Positions 1,926 through 55,740 of a stretch of 58,211 nucleotides of DNA are shown one piece after another. Each line of letters starts with the position of its first letter. Position 1 is the first letter of the stretch. The translations under genes were made by a program, and so were the position numbers. The notes below the pieces were generated by a model. It saw only the letters and a list, made by a program, of their open reading frames with translations. It ran no database searches and was not told the origin of the DNA. The stretch is taken from the IMG/VR virus record IMGVR_UViG_3300029763_000003; one strand, written 5' to 3'. The DNA is from a virus.

Positions 1926-2129
1926 GAGTAAAAAAATAAATGTTTACTATCAATAGGATCACTTTTCCATCAACACTTTTTTGTGTTAGTTTACAGCTTG
2001 TATAATTATCGTATTATCAAGTTTTACTATAAATTTCCGTCCCAATTCTAACACATTAAAGTGTCAAAACCGCCATCAAAAATGTACACTAAAACGTGTT
2101 TTAACATACAAATTATACAAATTGGGCTG

Positions 2130-2158
2130 TTGACAACTATATACCAAGCGTCTATAAT
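2130..2158 (+). promoter_or_regulatory. Consensus sigma-70-type promoter (TTGACA-17-TATAAT) on the plus strand, divergent from the 1897-1925 promoter.
   Basis: TTGACA at 2130-2135 and TATAAT at 2153-2158. Confidence 0.7.
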
Positions 2159-3816: not shown

Positions 3817-4455
3817 TTATTCCTCTACGAGGTCTGCGTACTTGACTTCAATGCGGGGCAGTTCATCGGTAGTGCTGGTCAATGCTCTTGTGATTTTTTC
3901 AAGCCCGGTGAACTCACCATAAACGGTGATAATATCATCTTCCAGAATCTTCACAGCATCGCCACCACGCTTGTCCAGCATATAATACTCGTCATCGGCA
4001 TAGAATCCGTATCCGCTGTTGTCCGTGTAGGTTCTCCACGCTTTCTCGCTGCCGGAGAAGTTTGCGTCAATAATCTGCGAGACCTTTACCTTGACTACAA
4101 TCTTAGTACCTTCATACTTTTCAGGATAACGGCACAGCTCCTTATAGTCCACAGTCTGGCACTCTGCCTTGTAATCGTCCTCGCTGATCTCAGGCACAAC
4201 AGATGCAACGGAAGAAGCGGTGGATGCACTTTCCTTGTTAGACGTAGCGTCCTTGTAGCCTTCTTCAAAGCCCTTCTTGCCGCTATCGCTAGAGCCACCA
4301 ATAGCAGACAAGACAATCAAAACAATGATAGCGATAAACCACCAGCGCTTGTAGATGGGCGGCTTGTTCTTGCCGCCGCACTGAGGGCAGACCTTTGCGC
4401 TTGCAGCAATCTCTGCGCCACAGTGCTTGCACGTTGTCATTTTACTTTTAGCCAT
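3817..4455 (-). CDS. Membrane-anchored zinc-ribbon protein with an extracellular domain (DUF4352-like). Moron or candidate exclusion protein.
   Basis: ATG at 4455 with RBS GGGAGGA. It has CKHCG..CPQCG, then the TM segment WWFIAIIVLIVLSAIGG. The 361-aa ORF-track version extends into a GC-rich non-coding island. Confidence 0.65.
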   Translation of the reverse strand: MAKSKMTTCKHCGAEIAASAKVCPQCGGKNKPPIYKRWWFIAIIVLIVLSAIGGSSDSGKKGFEEGYKDATSNKESASTASSVASVVPEISEDDYKAECQTVDYKELCRYPEKYEGTKIVVKVKVSQIIDANFSGSEKAWRTYTDNSGYGFYADDEYYMLDKRGGDAVKILEDDIITVYGEFTGLEKITRALTSTTDELPRIEVKYADLVEE

Positions 4456-20652: not shown

Positions 20653-21285
20653 TTACTCTCCTTTGCTGTCCGGCTGAACCGGGATGTTGTAATACTCACG
20701 GATGGTCTTGTCTACGGCGGCGAGGTCGTTCTCGATCAGTGCATCGTTGAACATTCCCAGAGGGGTTTTCACGGTGTCCATCCCATCATTGCGAGTGCTG
20801 AACAGGTATCGCCCATCCTGTACAACGGTTTTCAGGACGATGGTGAAGTACCCCTCCACGCAGACCTTCTCGTCCAGCAGCTTACCGATGGTCTTGAACT
20901 TCTCGCCACCGTCTCCGTCACGCTCGCTGTGACCGAAAAAGTAGACCACAACATCATCCGGCAGTTCTTTCGCCCGCATCAGCAAGGTGTTGAAGTTGGC
21001 TGCCATGTCGGTAAACTTCTGGTATCCAGCGACCTTTGCGTTCCGCATGAACTCGCCAGTCATAAGGTAGGTGGCATCGTCAATGACGATGGACTTACGC
21101 TTGGTGCTGTGGATTGCAGCATCAATCTTGCCGTAGTCGTTTGTGATATAGGTTTTCATGTTGCTGCGGAACGGCAGCGGCTTTCCAAGCACGTTGATAA
21201 CCGCAACCTGTTCCGGGTCAAAGTTCCGAAGCGAAGCGGATTTACCGCTGCCGGAGTGACCGTAGACCATTACTAATACTGCCAT
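20653..21285 (-). CDS. Sak4-like (AAA_24) recombination ATPase.
   Basis: Walker A VYGHSGSGKSASL and Walker B SIVIDDATY. About 210 aa. Confidence 0.65.
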   Translation of the reverse strand: MAVLVMVYGHSGSGKSASLRNFDPEQVAVINVLGKPLPFRSNMKTYITNDYGKIDAAIHSTKRKSIVIDDATYLMTGEFMRNAKVAGYQKFTDMAANFNTLLMRAKELPDDVVVYFFGHSERDGDGGEKFKTIGKLLDEKVCVEGYFTIVLKTVVQDGRYLFSTRNDGMDTVKTPLGMFNDALIENDLAAVDKTIREYYNIPVQPDSKGE

Positions 21286-21300: not shown

Positions 21301-21350
21301 TCGGCTTCATTAGGCTTCATTGTTCTTACTTTGGCTTAACTTGGCTGTAC
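21301..21350 (-). repeat. Mini-array of the same 10-bp-phased RAGCC decamers as at 28771-28970, in inverted orientation.
   Basis: Plus-strand text tcGGCTtcat taGGCTtcat tgttcttact ttGGCTtaac ttGGCTgtac. This corresponds on the minus strand to gtacAGCCaa gttaAGCCaa agtaagaaca atgaAGCCta atgaAGCCga. Confidence 0.7.
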
Positions 21351-26208: not shown

Positions 26209-26423
26209 TTTCCATCCACTTTTTGTCCTCGTTTAACGTGCCTAACCGTAGATGGTGCGCCTCTCGGCTTGCTTCTAGCTTGCATTTATTGGCTTTGGAT
26301 GCTATTGTTTTCAACAAGATTTGAAAATTCAAGAAGTGTGTGTTGAAAAGTGTCTGCTTCTTTGCTATTTAGTAGATGTTATTTATCTCTCTTGTTTAGT
26401 ATCTTGTTTAATATATGTAAGGA

Positions 26424-26505
26424 GGCATACCAAATCTGCACGAAGGTATACTAAAACTGCATAGAGGTATACAAAATCTGCACGGACAGGTATACCAAAT
26501 CTGCA
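26424..26505 (+). repeat. Four tandem 17-bp iterons GG(C/T)ATAC(C/T/A)AAA(T/A)CTGCA at 21-23-bp spacing, next to an AT-rich stretch (26340-26420). Plasmid-type oriV.
   Basis: Copies at 26424, 26445, 26466 and 26489. Confidence 0.8.
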
Positions 26506-26524
26506 TGATGGTAGAAATGAACTC

Positions 26525-26553
26525 TTGATAATTCAACCGTGTTGTGATATACT
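26525..26553 (+). promoter_or_regulatory. rep promoter (TTGATA-17-TATACT).
   Basis: TTGATA at 26525-26530 and TATACT at 26548-26553. Confidence 0.6.
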
Positions 26554-26598
26554 GGTATCAACAAGTGGGAAGGATGTGAGAACTTGGGAGACTTGTCA

Positions 26599-27660
26599 AT
26601 GAACAATCTCGTAGAAAAGAGCAAGGCTCTTGTGTGGGCAAAGTTCAGGGACTATACCGCTGGAGAACTTCGTCTGCTAGAAGTATACCTGTCAAGAATC
26701 AACCCTCGCGACCCTGAAAGTGCAACTGTTCAGTTCACACTGAAAGAATACTGTGACTTTTTGGGTATCCGTCTGAACAGTAAAGATTTGAAGCAACAGC
26801 TTAGGCACTTCATTGAGAACACAGTAGCCGTCCCTCTTGAAGGGAAGGACGAATACACTCTGTACACCCTGTTTGCTATGGCGCAAATTCGATTTGACCC
26901 GGAGTGCTTTACATACATGGTCTCAATCAGATGCAACCCTTTGTTGCAGCCTGTGTTCTTTGATATTGCAGAAAAAGGGTATGTTCGGTATCGTCTGCGA
27001 TACACGGCAAGCATGAAGTCTCAGTATAGCATATTGCTTTATTCAATTCTTCGTGACTGGATGAACATGGGGTCGAAGGGGCATGAAATCAGCATCAAGA
27101 AGCTGAAGGAGCAACTTGGTGCGACAGCAAGCAGTTATGACCAGTTCAAATTTTTTAGAGCAAAGGTCTTGGATGTTGCCGTTGCTGAAATCAATGAAAT
27201 ATCCGACATTTCTGTGTCGTATAAAAAACGGACTGTTGGGCACAGAACAGTATCGATTATCTTTGACGTAAAGATAAAACGCTCTGAGCCGGTCATAGAT
27301 GCCGAATCCAGCGAGATTGAGACAACCCCATTAAGAGACGTCTCTGACAACGAAAAGCCTGTAAAAAGCCCTAGAAACGGCGCATACGAAGATGTTGACT
27401 GGGCAAGCCTGATGCCGGGCGTTGACGAAAAGCAGTGTGCAAGCATTGCAAGGTCTGTTGCAAGGCGAATAAAATCTGAATACCCGAATATTCGCAAAGA
27501 CAAGAAGAAGGATGCTGTTGTGAACATTGTGCAGGGCGCATACGAGCAAGCCGTAAAGGGCAAACCGGATGTTGAAGTGCCAGAAGCTTACCTTCGAACG
27601 GTTATCAAGGATTCTCAGTTAAGCAAGTTTGCGACATTCGGGTTCGATTATCTTGAATAA
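26599..27660 (+). CDS. Plasmid replication initiator (Rep_3/RepB-like, iteron-binding).
   Basis: The N-terminus NNLVEKSKALVWAKFRDYTAGELRLLEVYLSRINP...FTLKEYCDFLGI and later SQYSILLYSILRDW are typical Rep_3 patterns. Iterons lie upstream. Confidence 0.75.
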   Translation: MNNLVEKSKALVWAKFRDYTAGELRLLEVYLSRINPRDPESATVQFTLKEYCDFLGIRLNSKDLKQQLRHFIENTVAVPLEGKDEYTLYTLFAMAQIRFDPECFTYMVSIRCNPLLQPVFFDIAEKGYVRYRLRYTASMKSQYSILLYSILRDWMNMGSKGHEISIKKLKEQLGATASSYDQFKFFRAKVLDVAVAEINEISDISVSYKKRTVGHRTVSIIFDVKIKRSEPVIDAESSEIETTPLRDVSDNEKPVKSPRNGAYEDVDWASLMPGVDEKQCASIARSVARRIKSEYPNIRKDKKKDAVVNIVQGAYEQAVKGKPDVEVPEAYLRTVIKDSQLSKFATFGFDYLE

Positions 27661-27675
27661 AGAAAGAGTGATAAA

Positions 27676-28443
27676 ATGGCAAAAATCATAGCTGTCGCCA
27701 ACCAGAAGGGCGGCACAGGAAAGACTACCACAAGCACCTGTCTGGCCGGTGCGTTGCAGTTGCTCGGAAAGAAGGTACTGCTGGTGGACTGCGATGCCCA
27801 GTGCAACACAACGGATACCTACGGAGCACAGACAGAGGACGTATGCACCTTGTTTGATGTGATGACCCGGCAAGGTACGGTCGAAGAAGGAATCCAGCAC
27901 TGTGAAGCTGGTGACATTCTTCCGTCCGACAACGCATTGAAGGACATTGACGAGCAGCTTGTCCGGGACATGGGCAAGAACTTCAGATTGCGAGAAGCCC
28001 TTGAAAGCGTATCTGGGCAGTACGATTACATTGTGCTAGACACTCCCCCGCAGCTTGGTCTTGCGCTTGTGAACGCGCTGATCGCCGCCAACAGCATCAT
28101 CGTTCCCATCACAGCAGACCGATACGCACTGGCTGGTTTGAGCCAGCTTTCGCAGACCATCGGCGATGTTCGCAGATACTTCAATCCGACTTTGAAGATT
28201 GAAGGTCTGCTTCTGAACCAGTACAAGAGCCGTGAGAACCTGTCCAAAGAGGTTGTGGAGCAGCTTCCTGTAATTGCACAAAGCATGGGAACAAAGCTAC
28301 TGGACGTGAAAATTAGACCGTCTATGGGCGTTCGTAAGGCACAGGCAGAGCGTCACAGCCTGTTCAGTGGTGACACGGCAAAGAGTACCAGCGCAGAGGA
28401 TTTCAAGGCGTTGGCGAAGATGATTGTAGAGGGGGATGTGTAG
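27676..28443 (+). CDS. parA: ParA/Soj-type partition ATPase.
   Basis: Deviant Walker A VANQKGGTGKTTTS, plus LLVDCDAQ and YDYIVLDTPP. Confidence 0.85.
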   Translation: MAKIIAVANQKGGTGKTTTSTCLAGALQLLGKKVLLVDCDAQCNTTDTYGAQTEDVCTLFDVMTRQGTVEEGIQHCEAGDILPSDNALKDIDEQLVRDMGKNFRLREALESVSGQYDYIVLDTPPQLGLALVNALIAANSIIVPITADRYALAGLSQLSQTIGDVRRYFNPTLKIEGLLLNQYKSRENLSKEVVEQLPVIAQSMGTKLLDVKIRPSMGVRKAQAERHSLFSGDTAKSTSAEDFKALAKMIVEGDV

Positions 28444-28700
28444 TGAATGTAGTTAGATATAAAGAGTTGGAAAAAGCCGAGTTTGAATTGCAAAGCAAAT
28501 TCAGCTCGAAAGATGTTATGTTTTTCCGCCGAGGGGATGGAATAGACAATCCGATTTATTATGTTGTTTCGCAAAGACATTGTGGGGCGTTAAGTCCCGA
28601 AGAAGCCATAAAAGCCGGAAAAGTTTTGATTGAAGCTGGAAATGCGGCGAAATCTTTTCGGTACAACGGGTATTTTATTGATTGGAGTGACACACAGTGA
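28443..28700 (+). CDS. Small protein (85 aa) translationally coupled to parA. Possible partition adaptor.
   Basis: GTG start overlaps the parA stop (GTGTAGTGA). RBS GAGGGGGA. Confidence 0.5.
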   Translation: MNVVRYKELEKAEFELQSKFSSKDVMFFRRGDGIDNPIYYVVSQRHCGALSPEEAIKAGKVLIEAGNAAKSFRYNGYFIDWSDTQ

Positions 28701-29269
28701 AAAAGTCCAGCAAAAAAACATCCGGCTTGTTGGGCGGGTTTGATTTCCAGCCTATTTCTTCGGGGCGGGCATTAAGCCAAAGTGAGCCAAAGGAAGAAGA
28801 AGTAAGCCAAGCAAAGCCGAACGAAGCCGAACAAGAACAGATTGAGCCCAGTGAAGCCACAGGCAGCCATGCACAGCCTAATGAAGCACGGTTAAGCAAT
28901 ATTAAGCCGAAGCAAGCCAAAGACAGCGGAACACAGCCAAACAATGCAGTAGTAAGCGAAAGTAAGCCAAAGAAGCTGAAACAGGCGAAAGAAGTTCAAC
29001 GTCTTATCGAACAAGGCGATGTTCCAGGAGCACTAGCAGAAGCTGGTTTGACAAAGAAAAAAATCCCGATGCCGGAATCGCATCAGGGCGTTGCAAGCGG
29101 TGATGGCAAGCGTTCTAAGCGCATTACCATCCTTATGAGCGAGGAAGAACGCAAGTACATCAACCGTGAAGCAAGACGGCACGGAATGACCATCGGGCAG
29201 TATGTGTACGCTCTGGCTGCTGCTGCGGCAGACGGAAAGATTGAATTGGAGGATTTTTTAGATGAATGA
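28697..29269 (+). CDS. Ribbon-helix-helix DNA-binding protein with a low-complexity E/K/P/Q/S N-terminal half.
   Basis: The C-terminus KRITILMSEEERKYINREARRHGMTIGQYVYALAAAAA fits an RHH pattern. The GTG start overlaps the upstream stop. Confidence 0.6.
   Translation: MKKSSKKTSGLLGGFDFQPISSGRALSQSEPKEEEVSQAKPNEAEQEQIEPSEATGSHAQPNEARLSNIKPKQAKDSGTQPNNAVVSESKPKKLKQAKEVQRLIEQGDVPGALAEAGLTKKKIPMPESHQGVASGDGKRSKRITILMSEEERKYINREARRHGMTIGQYVYALAAAAADGKIELEDFLDE
28771..28970 (+). repeat. Twenty consecutive decamers with RAGCC in fixed phase (12 exact AGCC, 4 AGCA/AGCG). Candidate centromere/operator array inside a coding sequence.
   Basis: AGCC occupies positions 5-8 of the decamers starting at 28771, 28781, 28801, 28811, 28821, 28841, 28851, 28861, 28871, 28901, 28911, 28931 and 28961. 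AGCA or AGCG occupies them at 28881, 28891, 28921 and 28951. Confidence 0.8.
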
Positions 29270-29681
29270 CGTGTGGACTGATATTGGGCAGAAATATGAA
29301 GCAATGGCAAATATGGGATGCAAGCCTTATGGTTTCAAGCGAGTTCCATTAAATTTTGTGTTTGATGAAGATAAGTCGGTGAAGTGGAACAAAGAACAAG
29401 CGCAAAAGAACAACGATGATTACGACAATGAAGTTAAGCGACTGAATCAAGAAAAAATGAAGCGCAGGGATGAAATCTACGCAGAGATTTATAAGACGAT
29501 TCAAGAAGAAGTCGGTTTTGGGATTTCAGAAAAGAAAGCGGCAAAAATTTGGCGGTACGCTTACGATAGAGGGCATTCAGCAGGATGGTATGAAATAATC
29601 ATCAATTTGGAAGAAATTGAAGAACTCGTAAAGTTCGTATTAGGTAAAAAAACTGAGTTGGAGGATTTCTTAGATGAATGA
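29262..29681 (+). CDS. Hypothetical protein (139 aa).
   Basis: ATGAATGA overlap with the upstream stop. The C-terminus is ELEDFLDE. Confidence 0.6.
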   Translation: MNDVWTDIGQKYEAMANMGCKPYGFKRVPLNFVFDEDKSVKWNKEQAQKNNDDYDNEVKRLNQEKMKRRDEIYAEIYKTIQEEVGFGISEKKAAKIWRYAYDRGHSAGWYEIIINLEEIEELVKFVLGKKTELEDFLDE

Positions 29682-30555
29682 TAGTGAACGACGCCTTATT
29701 CGATTTGTTTGCGATGGTGATATGCGAAACGCGCAAAAAGCTGTTAAAATCATTTTGAATTCCATATCATCCAAAAAAGATGAGCAGTTCAAAGAAAATA
29801 TGCTTCGCAAGTTGGAAAGCAAAAGAGAATTTATTGAATTGCCATATAACTTACAGCATCTTTTGATCGCAGAGGATACAGAAGAATTTCCAGAAGCAAG
29901 ATTCCTTCTTAGGAACGAAGAAAAAAGTATAACGCAGAAAATCATTGCTATTTATCGAGCATCTGAAAAATTGAACGAAATGGGCATTCCTTATTTGCCA
30001 GCATTGATGCTTTATGGACAAAGCGGATGCGGAAAAACCATGCTGGCTAGGTATATCGCTCATAAAGCAAAACTTCCGTTTTTGAGGATTCAATTTTCAA
30101 GTCTAGTTGATTCGCACTTAGGGCAAACTCAATCTAACCTTGCGAGAATTTTTGATTATGTGAGAACCGCTCCTTGCGTTCTTTGTTTTGATGAAATAGA
30201 TGCGGTCGGAATGGCTCGTGGGCAAAACGATGACGTTGGGGAAATGAACCGTGTGGTTATTGCGATTATGCAAGAAATGGATAGATTGCCGAATAATGTC
30301 ATCATTATCGGAACGACAAACCGATTTGATAGGATTGACCCTGCGCTTACAAGAAGATTTCCGTTGCAATACGAATTAAAGCCGTTGTGCCGTGCGGATG
30401 CAGAAATACTTTCCAAAAGGTTCTTTGAATATGCAGGAGCACAATATGAAAACATAGCTTATGAAGACCACGTCCCCGCATCTACTGTTATCAAAGAATG
30501 TACAGAACGAATTGTAAATCAAGTTCTGAATCAAGAGGATTTCTTGGAGGATTGA
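29674..30555 (+). CDS. AAA+ ATPase (classical AAA family, PF00004-like).
   Basis: Walker A GQSGCGKTMLARYIA and Walker B VLCFDEIDAV. Also IIGTTNRFDRIDPALTRRF (sensor / Arg finger). Confidence 0.8.
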   Translation: MNDSERRLIRFVCDGDMRNAQKAVKIILNSISSKKDEQFKENMLRKLESKREFIELPYNLQHLLIAEDTEEFPEARFLLRNEEKSITQKIIAIYRASEKLNEMGIPYLPALMLYGQSGCGKTMLARYIAHKAKLPFLRIQFSSLVDSHLGQTQSNLARIFDYVRTAPCVLCFDEIDAVGMARGQNDDVGEMNRVVIAIMQEMDRLPNNVIIIGTTNRFDRIDPALTRRFPLQYELKPLCRADAEILSKRFFEYAGAQYENIAYEDHVPASTVIKECTERIVNQVLNQEDFLED

Positions 30556-33585: not shown

Positions 33586-34104
33586 TTATTCTCCTTTCTT
33601 CGCTGTGGCAGTGGGCTTAGAAAAGCTCTTCTGCCACTTTTCCAGTTCGTCCAGCCGATGCACAAGGGCGTTGTACTGCTCAATAGGCACGTACTGCTGT
33701 GTCGGTGCAGCGGTCTGCTGTGCCTGTTGTGCTTGCATCTGCCGCCATGCTTCCGGGCTGTAGAACTCCTGTACATAGGATTCACAGGTGTCCGGGTTGA
33801 GCCGCTTGCAATAAATCACACCGCTGCGCAAGTCCGGGCAGTAGGTCGGTCTGCCGTACAGGTCAGACGGTATTGCCAAAAACTCCTCCCTGCTGGAAAC
33901 GGGTCTACCAAGCAACCAACCGCCATCTTGTGCCGACTGCTGAACAGGCTGTTGCCCATTCATCGGCTGCGGACGCTGCGGTTGTGCCTGTTGCATCTGC
34001 GTGTTGGGTAGGGGAGTGGCAAGCCCGACCGTACCCATGCCGCCGTAAGGATTGACAGGCTGCTGTGGAACGTAGGGCGCGCCGGGTGTCGGATAATAGC
34101 TCAT
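33586..34104 (-). CDS. Hypothetical protein with a P/Q-rich N-terminus and a Cys-containing core (172 aa).
   Basis: ATG at 34104 follows AAGGAGGGA. MSYYPTPGAPYVPQQPVNPYGG... Confidence 0.6.
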   Translation of the reverse strand: MSYYPTPGAPYVPQQPVNPYGGMGTVGLATPLPNTQMQQAQPQRPQPMNGQQPVQQSAQDGGWLLGRPVSSREEFLAIPSDLYGRPTYCPDLRSGVIYCKRLNPDTCESYVQEFYSPEAWRQMQAQQAQQTAAPTQQYVPIEQYNALVHRLDELEKWQKSFSKPTATAKKGE

Positions 34105-55663: not shown

Positions 55664-55740
55664 TGGGTGCGGGGGCTGGATTTGAACCAGCGTCCTCCAG
55701 CTTATGAGGCTGGCGAGCTACCGTGCTGCTCTACTCCGCC
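55664..55740 (-). tRNA. tRNA-Met (anticodon CAU), initiator-like. CCA is encoded.
   Basis: Hand-folded: GGCGGAG-TA-GAGC-AGCACGGTA-GCTC-G-CCAGC-CTCATAA-GCTGG-AGGAC-GCTGG-TTCAAAT-CCAGC-CCCCGCA-C-CCA. There are two acceptor-stem mismatches (1:72 and 6:67). Confidence 0.75.

Follow-up and report, generated by a model that had tools for sequence, protein, structure and literature searches.

A phased decamer array within the linker-coding DNA of a ribbon-helix-helix protein gene as a candidate type Ib centromere/operator of a phage-plasmid

Ribbon-helix-helix (RHH) proteins that work with repeat-array centromeres, a parS site in the gene of its own binding protein, and a repeat array in the gene of its own binding protein are all already known. 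In the type II ParR/parC systems of R1 and pSK41, RHH dimers occupy tandem repeats of 10-11 bp or 20 bp and assemble into a helical filament; the omega protein of pSM19035 has 71 aa and no long linker; in Bacillus subtilis a parS site lies inside spo0J; and the iteron-bearing part of phage lambda gene O encodes an inter-domain linker. The centromere of pCXC100, a type Ib system of Leifsonia xyli, is intergenic and upstream of parA and consists of nine unspaced, non-palindromic 9-bp direct repeats, which ParB binds successively and cooperatively with one dimer per repeat (PMC3074162). The omega protein of pSM19035 (Firmicutes) uses several arrays of contiguous repeats that are both operators and centromeres, with at least four contiguous repeats needed (PMC9499535), the parS site of SCP2 (Streptomyces) is a single 18-bp palindrome inside parT, the gene of its own binding protein (PMC12260392), and the lambda origin has four 18-bp iterons within gene O that are bound by O (PMC3349717). 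Here we analyze the 58,211-nucleotide viral DNA IMGVR_UViG_3300029763_000003, the whole of which is referred to as the window, and in particular an array of 20 decamers within the gene of a 190-aa RHH protein that is associated with a plasmid-type parA. We consider it probable that this array is a type Ib centromere/operator of unspaced direct repeats, placed in the DNA that encodes the linker of its own putative binding protein.

The locus resembles pCXC100 in having a small Walker ParA, a partner with a C-terminal RHH domain and a flexible N-terminus, and unspaced short direct repeats, and one lineage of relatives (loci L084-L088) also uses a 9-bp unit; the pCXC100 repeats are intergenic and upstream of parA, however, whereas the array described here is inside the RHH gene. 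As in pSM19035, short-repeat arrays occur at separate places of the replicon, here with 20 and 5 units, although the omega heptads are 7 bp long, of mixed orientation and located in promoter regions, and none is described as coding. With SCP2 the locus shares a candidate centromere within the gene of its own presumed binding protein, and with lambda O/ori a repeat array in such a gene, but the SCP2 site is read by a sliding helix-turn-helix ParB-like protein rather than an RHH protein and has no phased array dictating a peptide repeat, and the lambda site is a replication origin with spaced 18-bp repeats and a different class of protein. The repeat geometry is similar to that of ParR/parC, which differs in pairing its repeats with an actin-like ParM instead of a Walker ParA and in having intergenic parC sites. 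An earlier note on this DNA had proposed that no partition site laid out in this way was described. This stands for the combination, as we found no description of an intragenic repeat-array centromere in the literature, the coverage of which was incomplete, but not for its elements, which are represented by parS within parT (PMC12260392) and by unspaced 9-bp RHH repeats (PMC3074162). What appears to be new is thus the combination itself: a phased array of 13-20 units in RHH linker-coding DNA, read in three frames, constrained at the DNA level, and changing its motif and period across lineages.

When the array is read in blocks of ten from position 28771, AGCC occupies bases 5-8 in 13 of the 20 blocks, and AGCA or AGCG takes the same place in four others; the earlier note had these four right and listed 13 AGCC decamers, yet gave their number as 12 of 20. 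A single phase is common to all 13 of the 13 AGCC between 28775 and 28965, and at 13 per 200 bp the array is the AGCC density peak of the window, for which the average is about one per 200 bp. The autocorrelation suggested by the note as a check of this phase bears it out, with base identity in the array giving z = 8.1, 7.1 and 7.2 at lags of 10, 20 and 30, respectively, and no signal at lag 3, where the value is negative. In a sliding scan of the whole window, the most strongly 10-bp-periodic 200-bp stretch starts exactly at 28771, with a periodicity excess of 0.274 (z 12.8) compared to 0.104 for the runner-up, and matches to the consensus AGTAAGCCAA with at most one mismatch cluster only at this array. 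The proposal that all sites lie on one face of the helix does not hold strictly, as sites spaced by 10.0 bp drift by about one turn over 20 units (200 bp). Likewise, the array is within the RHH gene as had been stated, but it is not immediately 3' of parA, since an 85-aa open reading frame (ORF) intervenes in the window.

The core of each unit is read successively in three frames as S-Q, (E/K/Q)-P and E-A, as correctly described before, and this generates a peptide with a 10-residue period, xSxxxPxxAx, over residues ~26-92 of the 190-aa protein, which form its disordered linker. The 200 nt of the array contain 86 A, 49 G, 46 C and 19 T. No internal promoter is predicted within it and no Rfam family matches it; its RNA is purine-rich and folds less well than shuffled sequences (z +2.2). 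We note that an antisense ORF of 89 aa spans the array and is probably an artefact of the T-poor and stop-poor repeat.

Codon choice and population diversity both speak to the question of whether the DNA or the peptide is constrained. In 5000 trials of synonymous resampling, in which the peptide was kept and codons were drawn from the window's own usage, 5.5±1.6 phased AGCC were obtained with a maximum of 12, as against the 13 observed, and shuffling of codon order gave 0.4±0.6; identity at lags 10, 20 and 30 is 0.548 in the array and 0.379±0.023 under resampling. All nine of the nine serine codons in the array are AGY, compared to 43% in the long ORFs of the window. The population set comprised 83 orthologues, 76 of them distinct, all 573 nt long and without indels. 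Diversity in the RHH domain has a period-3 power of 55, with 0.014 at codon positions 1+2 and 0.198 at position 3, whereas in the array the period-3 power is only 3.3, and a period of 10 with its harmonics is present (permutation 18/10000). At third positions, the array has a diversity of 0.092 (first 63 nt, 0.023), against 0.198 and 0.197 in the flanks of the same gene and 0.215 in parA, and diversity at positions 1+2 of the array (0.057) is above that of the RHH domain. Among the decamer positions, offset 9 (R) varies freely whichever codon position it falls in, while the AAGCC core is held, and T is found at decamer position 3 in 8 of 14 units in two of the frames but in none of the six in the frame where a TAA stop would form. 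Codon choice, together with diversity that follows a 10-bp rather than a codon register, provides good support for the earlier suggestion that selection acts on the DNA of the array and not on the peptide. Two further lines of evidence, arrays in distant orthologues with unrelated linkers and non-coding copies of the motif, are described below.

These data also bear on the idea that the linker grew by slippage of a 30-bp unit derived from triplication of a 10-bp one, with no function at the DNA level. It would agree with the rare variants P0108 and P0121, whose coding arrays are exactly 30 bp shorter, and with a linker that is predicted to be disordered and has a poorly conserved peptide. However, the array is as similar to itself at lag 10 as it is at lag 30, conservation is in the decamer register with one free position and constrained synonymous sites, and gene length is fixed at 573 nt in 83 of 83 sequences, with the listed protein clusters nearly all of 190 aa. 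In addition, independent lineages with different motifs keep non-codon periods, and the motif also occurs in conserved non-coding arrays, one variant of which has an exact 10-bp deletion, as against the 30 bp lost from the coding array. Such an origin is extremely improbable, and a neutral low-complexity origin can be regarded as essentially excluded.

An exhaustive homologue search recovered only a small family, the members of which have a common N-terminal peptide and a C-terminal RHH domain joined by unrelated linkers. Orthologues at 33-51% identity have unrelated linker peptides with arrays at the same part of the gene; for P0131, P0135 and P0136, proteins that were not found in the viral contigs, the DNA was taken from their encoding contigs. 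Locus L089 has 12-13 decamers of AGnGnnAGTC (z 6.2, 5.5 and 6.4 at lags 10, 20 and 30), L093-L095 have yACAGCGrAA decamers with a period of 10, L091 has about seven 20-bp units similar to GTAGTCACTTTGAGGCAGAA with a period of 20, L092 and L096 have repeats at multiples of 10-20 bp (period 10/20), and L084-L088 have about eighteen 9-bp units similar to CAGAATGAA (z ~6 at lags 9, 18, 27 and 36). In every locus, the most periodic 120 bp of the whole locus fall within the RHH gene. The comparison of relatives that had been called for thus shows that the linker peptide has drifted completely, whereas the DNA has retained the 10-bp phase or shifted to one of 9 or 20 bp.

The motifs also appear to track the predicted DNA-binding strand of the RHH domain. 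The β-strands RITILM (window) and RITIIM (L093-L095) pair with A(A/C)AGC(C/G), RVSVPM (L084) and RVSVAM (L091) with CAGAATGA, and RMAIAM (L089) with GTCAG/ACCAG, and by analogy with CopG alternate residues of the strand would be expected to contact bases. We therefore infer that the RHH protein is the binder of the array, on the basis of this covariation and of the non-coding motif copies described below. There is an about even chance that Rep3-ParA-RHH modules in mosaic phage-plasmids of the gut and in related elements have the 'centromere in linker' as a general dual-coding architecture. If it is, some 70 residues would be set mainly by the DNA preference of their own C-terminal domain, in a 10-bp and not a 3-bp register, and cis site and specificity determinant would be fused in a form that recombination cannot split, but that it can exchange as a cassette located after the conserved ParA and N-terminal tail. 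The ParA-RHH pair of L092 adjoins an integrase, and that of L096 adjoins ribosomal protein genes and a RelB/ParE pair; these, the most distant of the ParA-RHH pairs, appear to be integrated or chromosomal elements rather than phage-plasmids.

The 190-aa protein is composed of a conserved N-terminal peptide, the disordered linker, two helices and the C-terminal RHH domain. It scores 26.5 bits against the NikA-like RHH family of Pfam (cut-off 27) and 17.6 bits against NikA/MobA of NCBIfam (cut-off 80); the matches to the NikA/MobA name, which is that of relaxosome accessory proteins, are confined to the RHH motif, and the gene is parA-linked in every lineage. An AlphaFold2 model has a predicted local distance difference test (pLDDT) score below 50 for residues 13-89, helices at 91-105, 109-115, 149-161 and 166-178, and a β-α-α arrangement at residues 138-178. 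The top Foldseek neighbors are all RHH proteins (CopG, Arc, NikA and AmrZ), with template modeling (TM) scores of 0.84-0.88 over about 43 residues at E ~1, and a search of PDB sequences with the family profile gave no matches. The model is consistent with an RHH fold at the C-terminus, with statistical support that is marginal.

Within the RHH domain, the peptide KRITILMSEEERKYINREA is invariant in 82 of 82 close loci. At the other end of the protein, alignments show that the N-terminal peptide (pattern MKxxSxKxSGLLGGxDF in the family) is the sole N-terminal stretch kept across all lineages. By analogy with the tails of ParG, omega and ParB, it would be a ParA-contacting tail that stimulates the ATPase. 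Identity in ParA is still 95-97% in cases where it falls to only 47% for the rest of the RHH protein, and because ParA remains so similar and the N-terminal tail is conserved while linker and domain diverge, the alignments suggest that the array, the linker and the RHH domain travel as a single specificity cassette.

Several observations on the modules of this protein may be added. Proteins of 309 aa in which a Bro-N domain is fused to a C-terminal RHH of the same family are found in L089 and as P0137, with β-strands TRISIPM and KRITILM, respectively, so that use of the RHH module extends beyond the partner of ParA. Near-identical C-terminal peptides are also present in three consecutive genes of the window: ELEDFLDE in the RHH protein, ELEDFLDE in a 139-aa ORF, and QEDFLED in an AAA ATPase. 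The DNA of the first two tails, …TTGGAGGATTT(T/C)TTAGATGAATGA, holds a ribosome-binding site (GGAGG) and overlaps the ATG with which the following gene starts, and similar tails (LEDFLDK, LEDYLEEE) are present in distant orthologues. The shared tail looks like a reused translational-coupling or recombination junction, which would make it another DNA signal that dictates peptide.

Copies of the motif are not restricted to coding DNA. A second array, of five decamers, sits in a 69-bp spacer directly upstream of the ribosome-binding site of a Sak4-like gene, and is kept in 79 relatives with its cores held and offsets 9, 10 and 1 variable; its per-offset diversity, obtained by anchored extraction of the spacer sequences, has a correlation of r = 0.84 with the profile of the coding array. 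It is probably a second site or operator of the same RHH protein, comparable to the multiple arrays of omega in pSM19035. In some relatives, copies of each locus's own motif are found in the spacer between rep and parA, which is the classical position of a type Ib operator/centromere. The 79-bp spacer of L089 contains seven phased decamers of its own motif, and four of the six best matrix matches outside its main array are in this spacer and in one phase; in L091, GTAGTCACTTTG and AGAATG are common to the spacer and the intragenic units; and in L177 and L178 rep is followed by a short GCAGAWnnn run. The window has only 16 bp between the rep stop and the start of parA, with no decamer array upstream of parA, and the gap leaves no room for a classical upstream centromere. 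We also note an extra array of five ACAGCG decamers inside another gene, of 171/174 aa, in L094 and L095; the window orthologue lacks such an array, and in L095 the peptide QPNTAQYSAGQ is common to the product of this gene and the RHH linker.

The non-coding copies are also relevant to the main rival explanation, namely that the arrays are bound by the RHH protein but are purely regulatory, with an operator for the Sak4-like module and an intragenic roadblock that autoregulates the RHH and downstream genes, the centromere being elsewhere or dispensable. Both the position of the five-decamer array immediately upstream of a ribosome-binding site and the copies in a promoter-type spacer upstream of parA in L089 and L091 agree with this. 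However, the type Ib arrays that have been characterized serve as operator and centromere both (PMC9499535; PMC3074162), an operator does not need 13-20 units, and the full-length protein has a conserved tail that co-varies with ParA. Moreover, tandem-repeat (TRF), consensus and periodicity scans found no other repeat array in the window that could serve ParA, the Rep iterons excepted. A purely regulatory role is therefore unlikely. The iterons were considered as an explanation of the decamers and rejected, as their 21-bp units are unrelated in sequence.

Phages with an RHH protein of the P0126 type, which has a 9-bp array, provide a further perspective, since they retain the AAGCC spacer array. 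In L177 and L178 there are tandem RHH genes, with a full-length P0126-type gene and its 9-bp array beside ParA, followed by a 77-aa zinc-ribbon ORF and a 106-aa, N-terminally truncated version of the window-type RHH protein that has the KRITILM strand and has five or six remnant AAGCC decamers ahead of it. The presence of this truncated protein is in line with AAGCC going with a window-type RHH. As the protein lacks the N-terminal tail, it could regulate but not contact ParA, which agrees with a purely regulatory array, and the two loci suggest that regulation and partition can be divided over two proteins. C-terminal-only RHH versions also occur as P0122, P0125 and P0127, which form separate clusters.

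A number of points weigh against the reading of the array as a centromere/operator bound by the RHH protein. In L179 and L181 the AAGCC spacer array is retained although no window-type RHH is visible, a KRITILM-type RHH being found neither within ±10 kb nor elsewhere among the matches listed; recombination with the majority type, an RHH copy elsewhere in the genome, or another reader of the motif are possible causes. All arrays seen are oriented as the sense strand of local transcription, something that is not predicted by a model based purely on double-stranded DNA. The covariation of β-strand and motif is descriptive and covers few lineages, and the RHH assignment itself combines a Pfam score below cut-off with Foldseek matches of good TM-score at E ~1. 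Finally, sequence analysis does not separate an operator from a centromere role, and the array, which we take to act as a centromere, could be only an operator.

The first two of these points, and the purine-rich and unusually unstructured, hence accessible, array RNA, would agree with a different use of the array, be it by some other DNA-binding protein of the phage or host, as an RNA element of the sense transcript, or for DNA curvature through its phasing. We consider this very unlikely, since without exception the arrays sit within the RHH gene, with a motif that differs according to the RHH β-strand, and a strict 10- or 20-bp period suits the double helix and not single-stranded RNA. An RNA element is also not favored by the lack of an Rfam match, nor curvature by the absence of A-tract phasing from the L089 and L094 motifs, and in a highly mosaic population the spacer of the rare L179/L181 type may have been exchanged with the majority type.

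If the array is indeed a centromere/operator, the window would represent a tailed phage with a second existence as a low-copy plasmid, maintained through Rep3 and a type Ib ParA/RHH partition system, with the 20-decamer array as the main cis site of partition. C-terminal RHH dimers would bind successive 10-bp repeats cooperatively, each helical turn taking one dimer, so that about 200 bp become coated, and disordered linkers of about 70 residues would project the conserved N-terminal peptides from the RHH-DNA filament. These peptides would engage nucleoid-bound ParA-ATP and stimulate its ATPase, such that sister copies are pulled apart. The linker peptide need presumably be only hydrophilic and disordered, so that the DNA would be free to be shaped for binding, and the rotation of the reading frame through the motif would yield the 10-aa period. 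Cooperativity, activation of ParA and any roadblock autoregulation are presumed here.

Should the array be a centromere, it would present a clear natural case of overlapping codes, in which a coding stretch of 200 bp is dominated by a helical-register constraint, and the peptide is for the most part a by-product. With the site inseparable from the gene of its reader, the arrangement would also hint at how highly mosaic phage-plasmids keep their partition specificity matched, and it would provide a search rule for 'missing' type Ib centromeres, namely non-codon periodicity inside a ParB-like gene. Some low-complexity 'disordered linkers' may likewise be shaped by a function at the DNA level.

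Table 1. Coordinates of features in the window and in related loci.
Feature	Locus	Coordinates	Strand	Remarks
Sak4-like gene	Window	20653-21285	-	
Second array	Window	21301-21350	-	Non-coding; five decamers GTACAGCCAA GTTAAGCCAA AGTAAGAACA ATGAAGCCTA ATGAAGCCGA
Iterons	Window	26423-26513	+	21-bp iteron AGGTATACCAAATCTGCACGA, 4.2 copies, upstream of rep (TRF)
Promoter-like site	Window	26525-26553		Upstream of Rep3 gene
Rep3-family initiator	Window	26584-27660	+	
ParA	Window	27676-28443	+	Small Walker-type, 255 aa, type Ib-like, without N-terminal DNA-binding domain
85-aa ORF	Window	28443-28700	+	In variable slot between parA and RHH gene
Antisense ORF	Window	28675-28944	-	89 aa; spans main array
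RHH protein gene	Window	28697-29269	+	190 aa; ParB-like candidate centromere-binding protein
N-terminal peptide codons	Window	28697-28753	+	MKKSSKKTSGLLGGFDFQP
Main array	Window	28771-28970	+	20 unspaced direct decamers, consensus nnnAAGCCrA; inside RHH gene
RHH DNA-binding domain (predicted)	Window	29108-29230	+	aa 138-178; β-strand KRITILM
Shared C-terminal tail, RHH protein	Window	29240-29269		
Shared C-terminal tail, 139-aa ORF	Window	29652-29681		
Shared C-terminal tail, AAA ATPase	Window	30530-30555		
Orthologue of 171/174-aa gene	Window	33589-34104	-	
tRNA gene	Window	55667-55740	-	Rfam RF00005, 53.5 bits
Decamers in rep-parA spacer	L089	1191-1260		
Bro-N-RHH fusion	L089	3276-4205		309 aa
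Motif copies in rep-parA spacer	L091	385-450		
Extra five-decamer array	L094	5323-5372	-	
Extra five-decamer array	L095	5598-5647	-	
Tandem RHH genes	L177	10001-11218		
Tandem RHH genes	L178	10001-11188		
AAGCC spacer array	L179	~4000-4060		
AAGCC spacer array	L181	~2070-2130	-	

The window codes for terminase, portal, major head protein and tape-measure protein, and the presence of these tailed-phage genes together with a plasmid-type rep/par module identifies it as a phage-plasmid. The module consists, in order, of iterons, the promoter-like site, Rep3, ParA, the 85-aa ORF, the 190-aa RHH protein, the 139-aa ORF and the AAA ATPase (Table 1); the iterons are likely the plasmid origin/operator of Rep3. 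ParA matches Pfam AAA_31 (1e-53 over residues 2-175), with additional CbiA and ParA matches, is ParA-like in PHROG, and matches ParA_partition of NCBIfam below the equivalog cut-off. The features by which type Ib systems are recognized are largely present: the small Walker ParA has no N-terminal DNA-binding domain, its parA-adjacent partner combines a flexible N-terminus with a C-terminal RHH whose fold support is marginal, and the short-repeat array expected of the centromere is represented by the 20 decamers and by lineage-specific equivalents in relatives. A centromere/operator upstream of parA is lacking in the window, whereas a short array is found there in L089, L091 and L177/L178. The adjacent ATPase is a Walker/deviant-Walker ParA without an actin-fold match, unlike in type II (ParM/ParR/parC) systems, and none of the eight flanking ORFs scanned has a tubulin-like match that would indicate a type III (TubZ/TubR/tubC) system.

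The slot between parA and the RHH gene contains variable small ORFs, and the distance between the two genes ranges from 6 to 740 nt across the close loci (L003-L082), with the RHH gene directly after parA in 14 of 81. A homologue of the 85-aa ORF is found in only 18 of 82 close loci and the ORF has no family matches in Pfam, PHROG or NCBIfam; it was considered as the true ParA adaptor and rejected as variable cargo that few close loci carry. In the distant lineages, the RHH gene follows ParA directly or is one ORF further on. Since the RHH gene is found after ParA in all lineages and the 85-aa ORF is rare, it is the RHH protein that is the constant partner of ParA. Among the close loci, identities are 47-99% for Rep, about 97% for ParA and about 88% for the RHH protein, and there is strong mosaicism around a conserved ParA-RHH pair.

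This phage family is very abundant in the human gut, with 505 related stretches in IMG/VR, contigs of 55-60 kb, and related protein clusters that contain thousands of members. No DNA relative of the window was found in PLSDB, and no relative among GTDB representative genomes. A phage collection yielded three matches, of which MT835520 (L083) has only the AAA ATPase in common and neither ParA nor RHH. Finally, a tRNA gene is present in the phage packaging region of the window.

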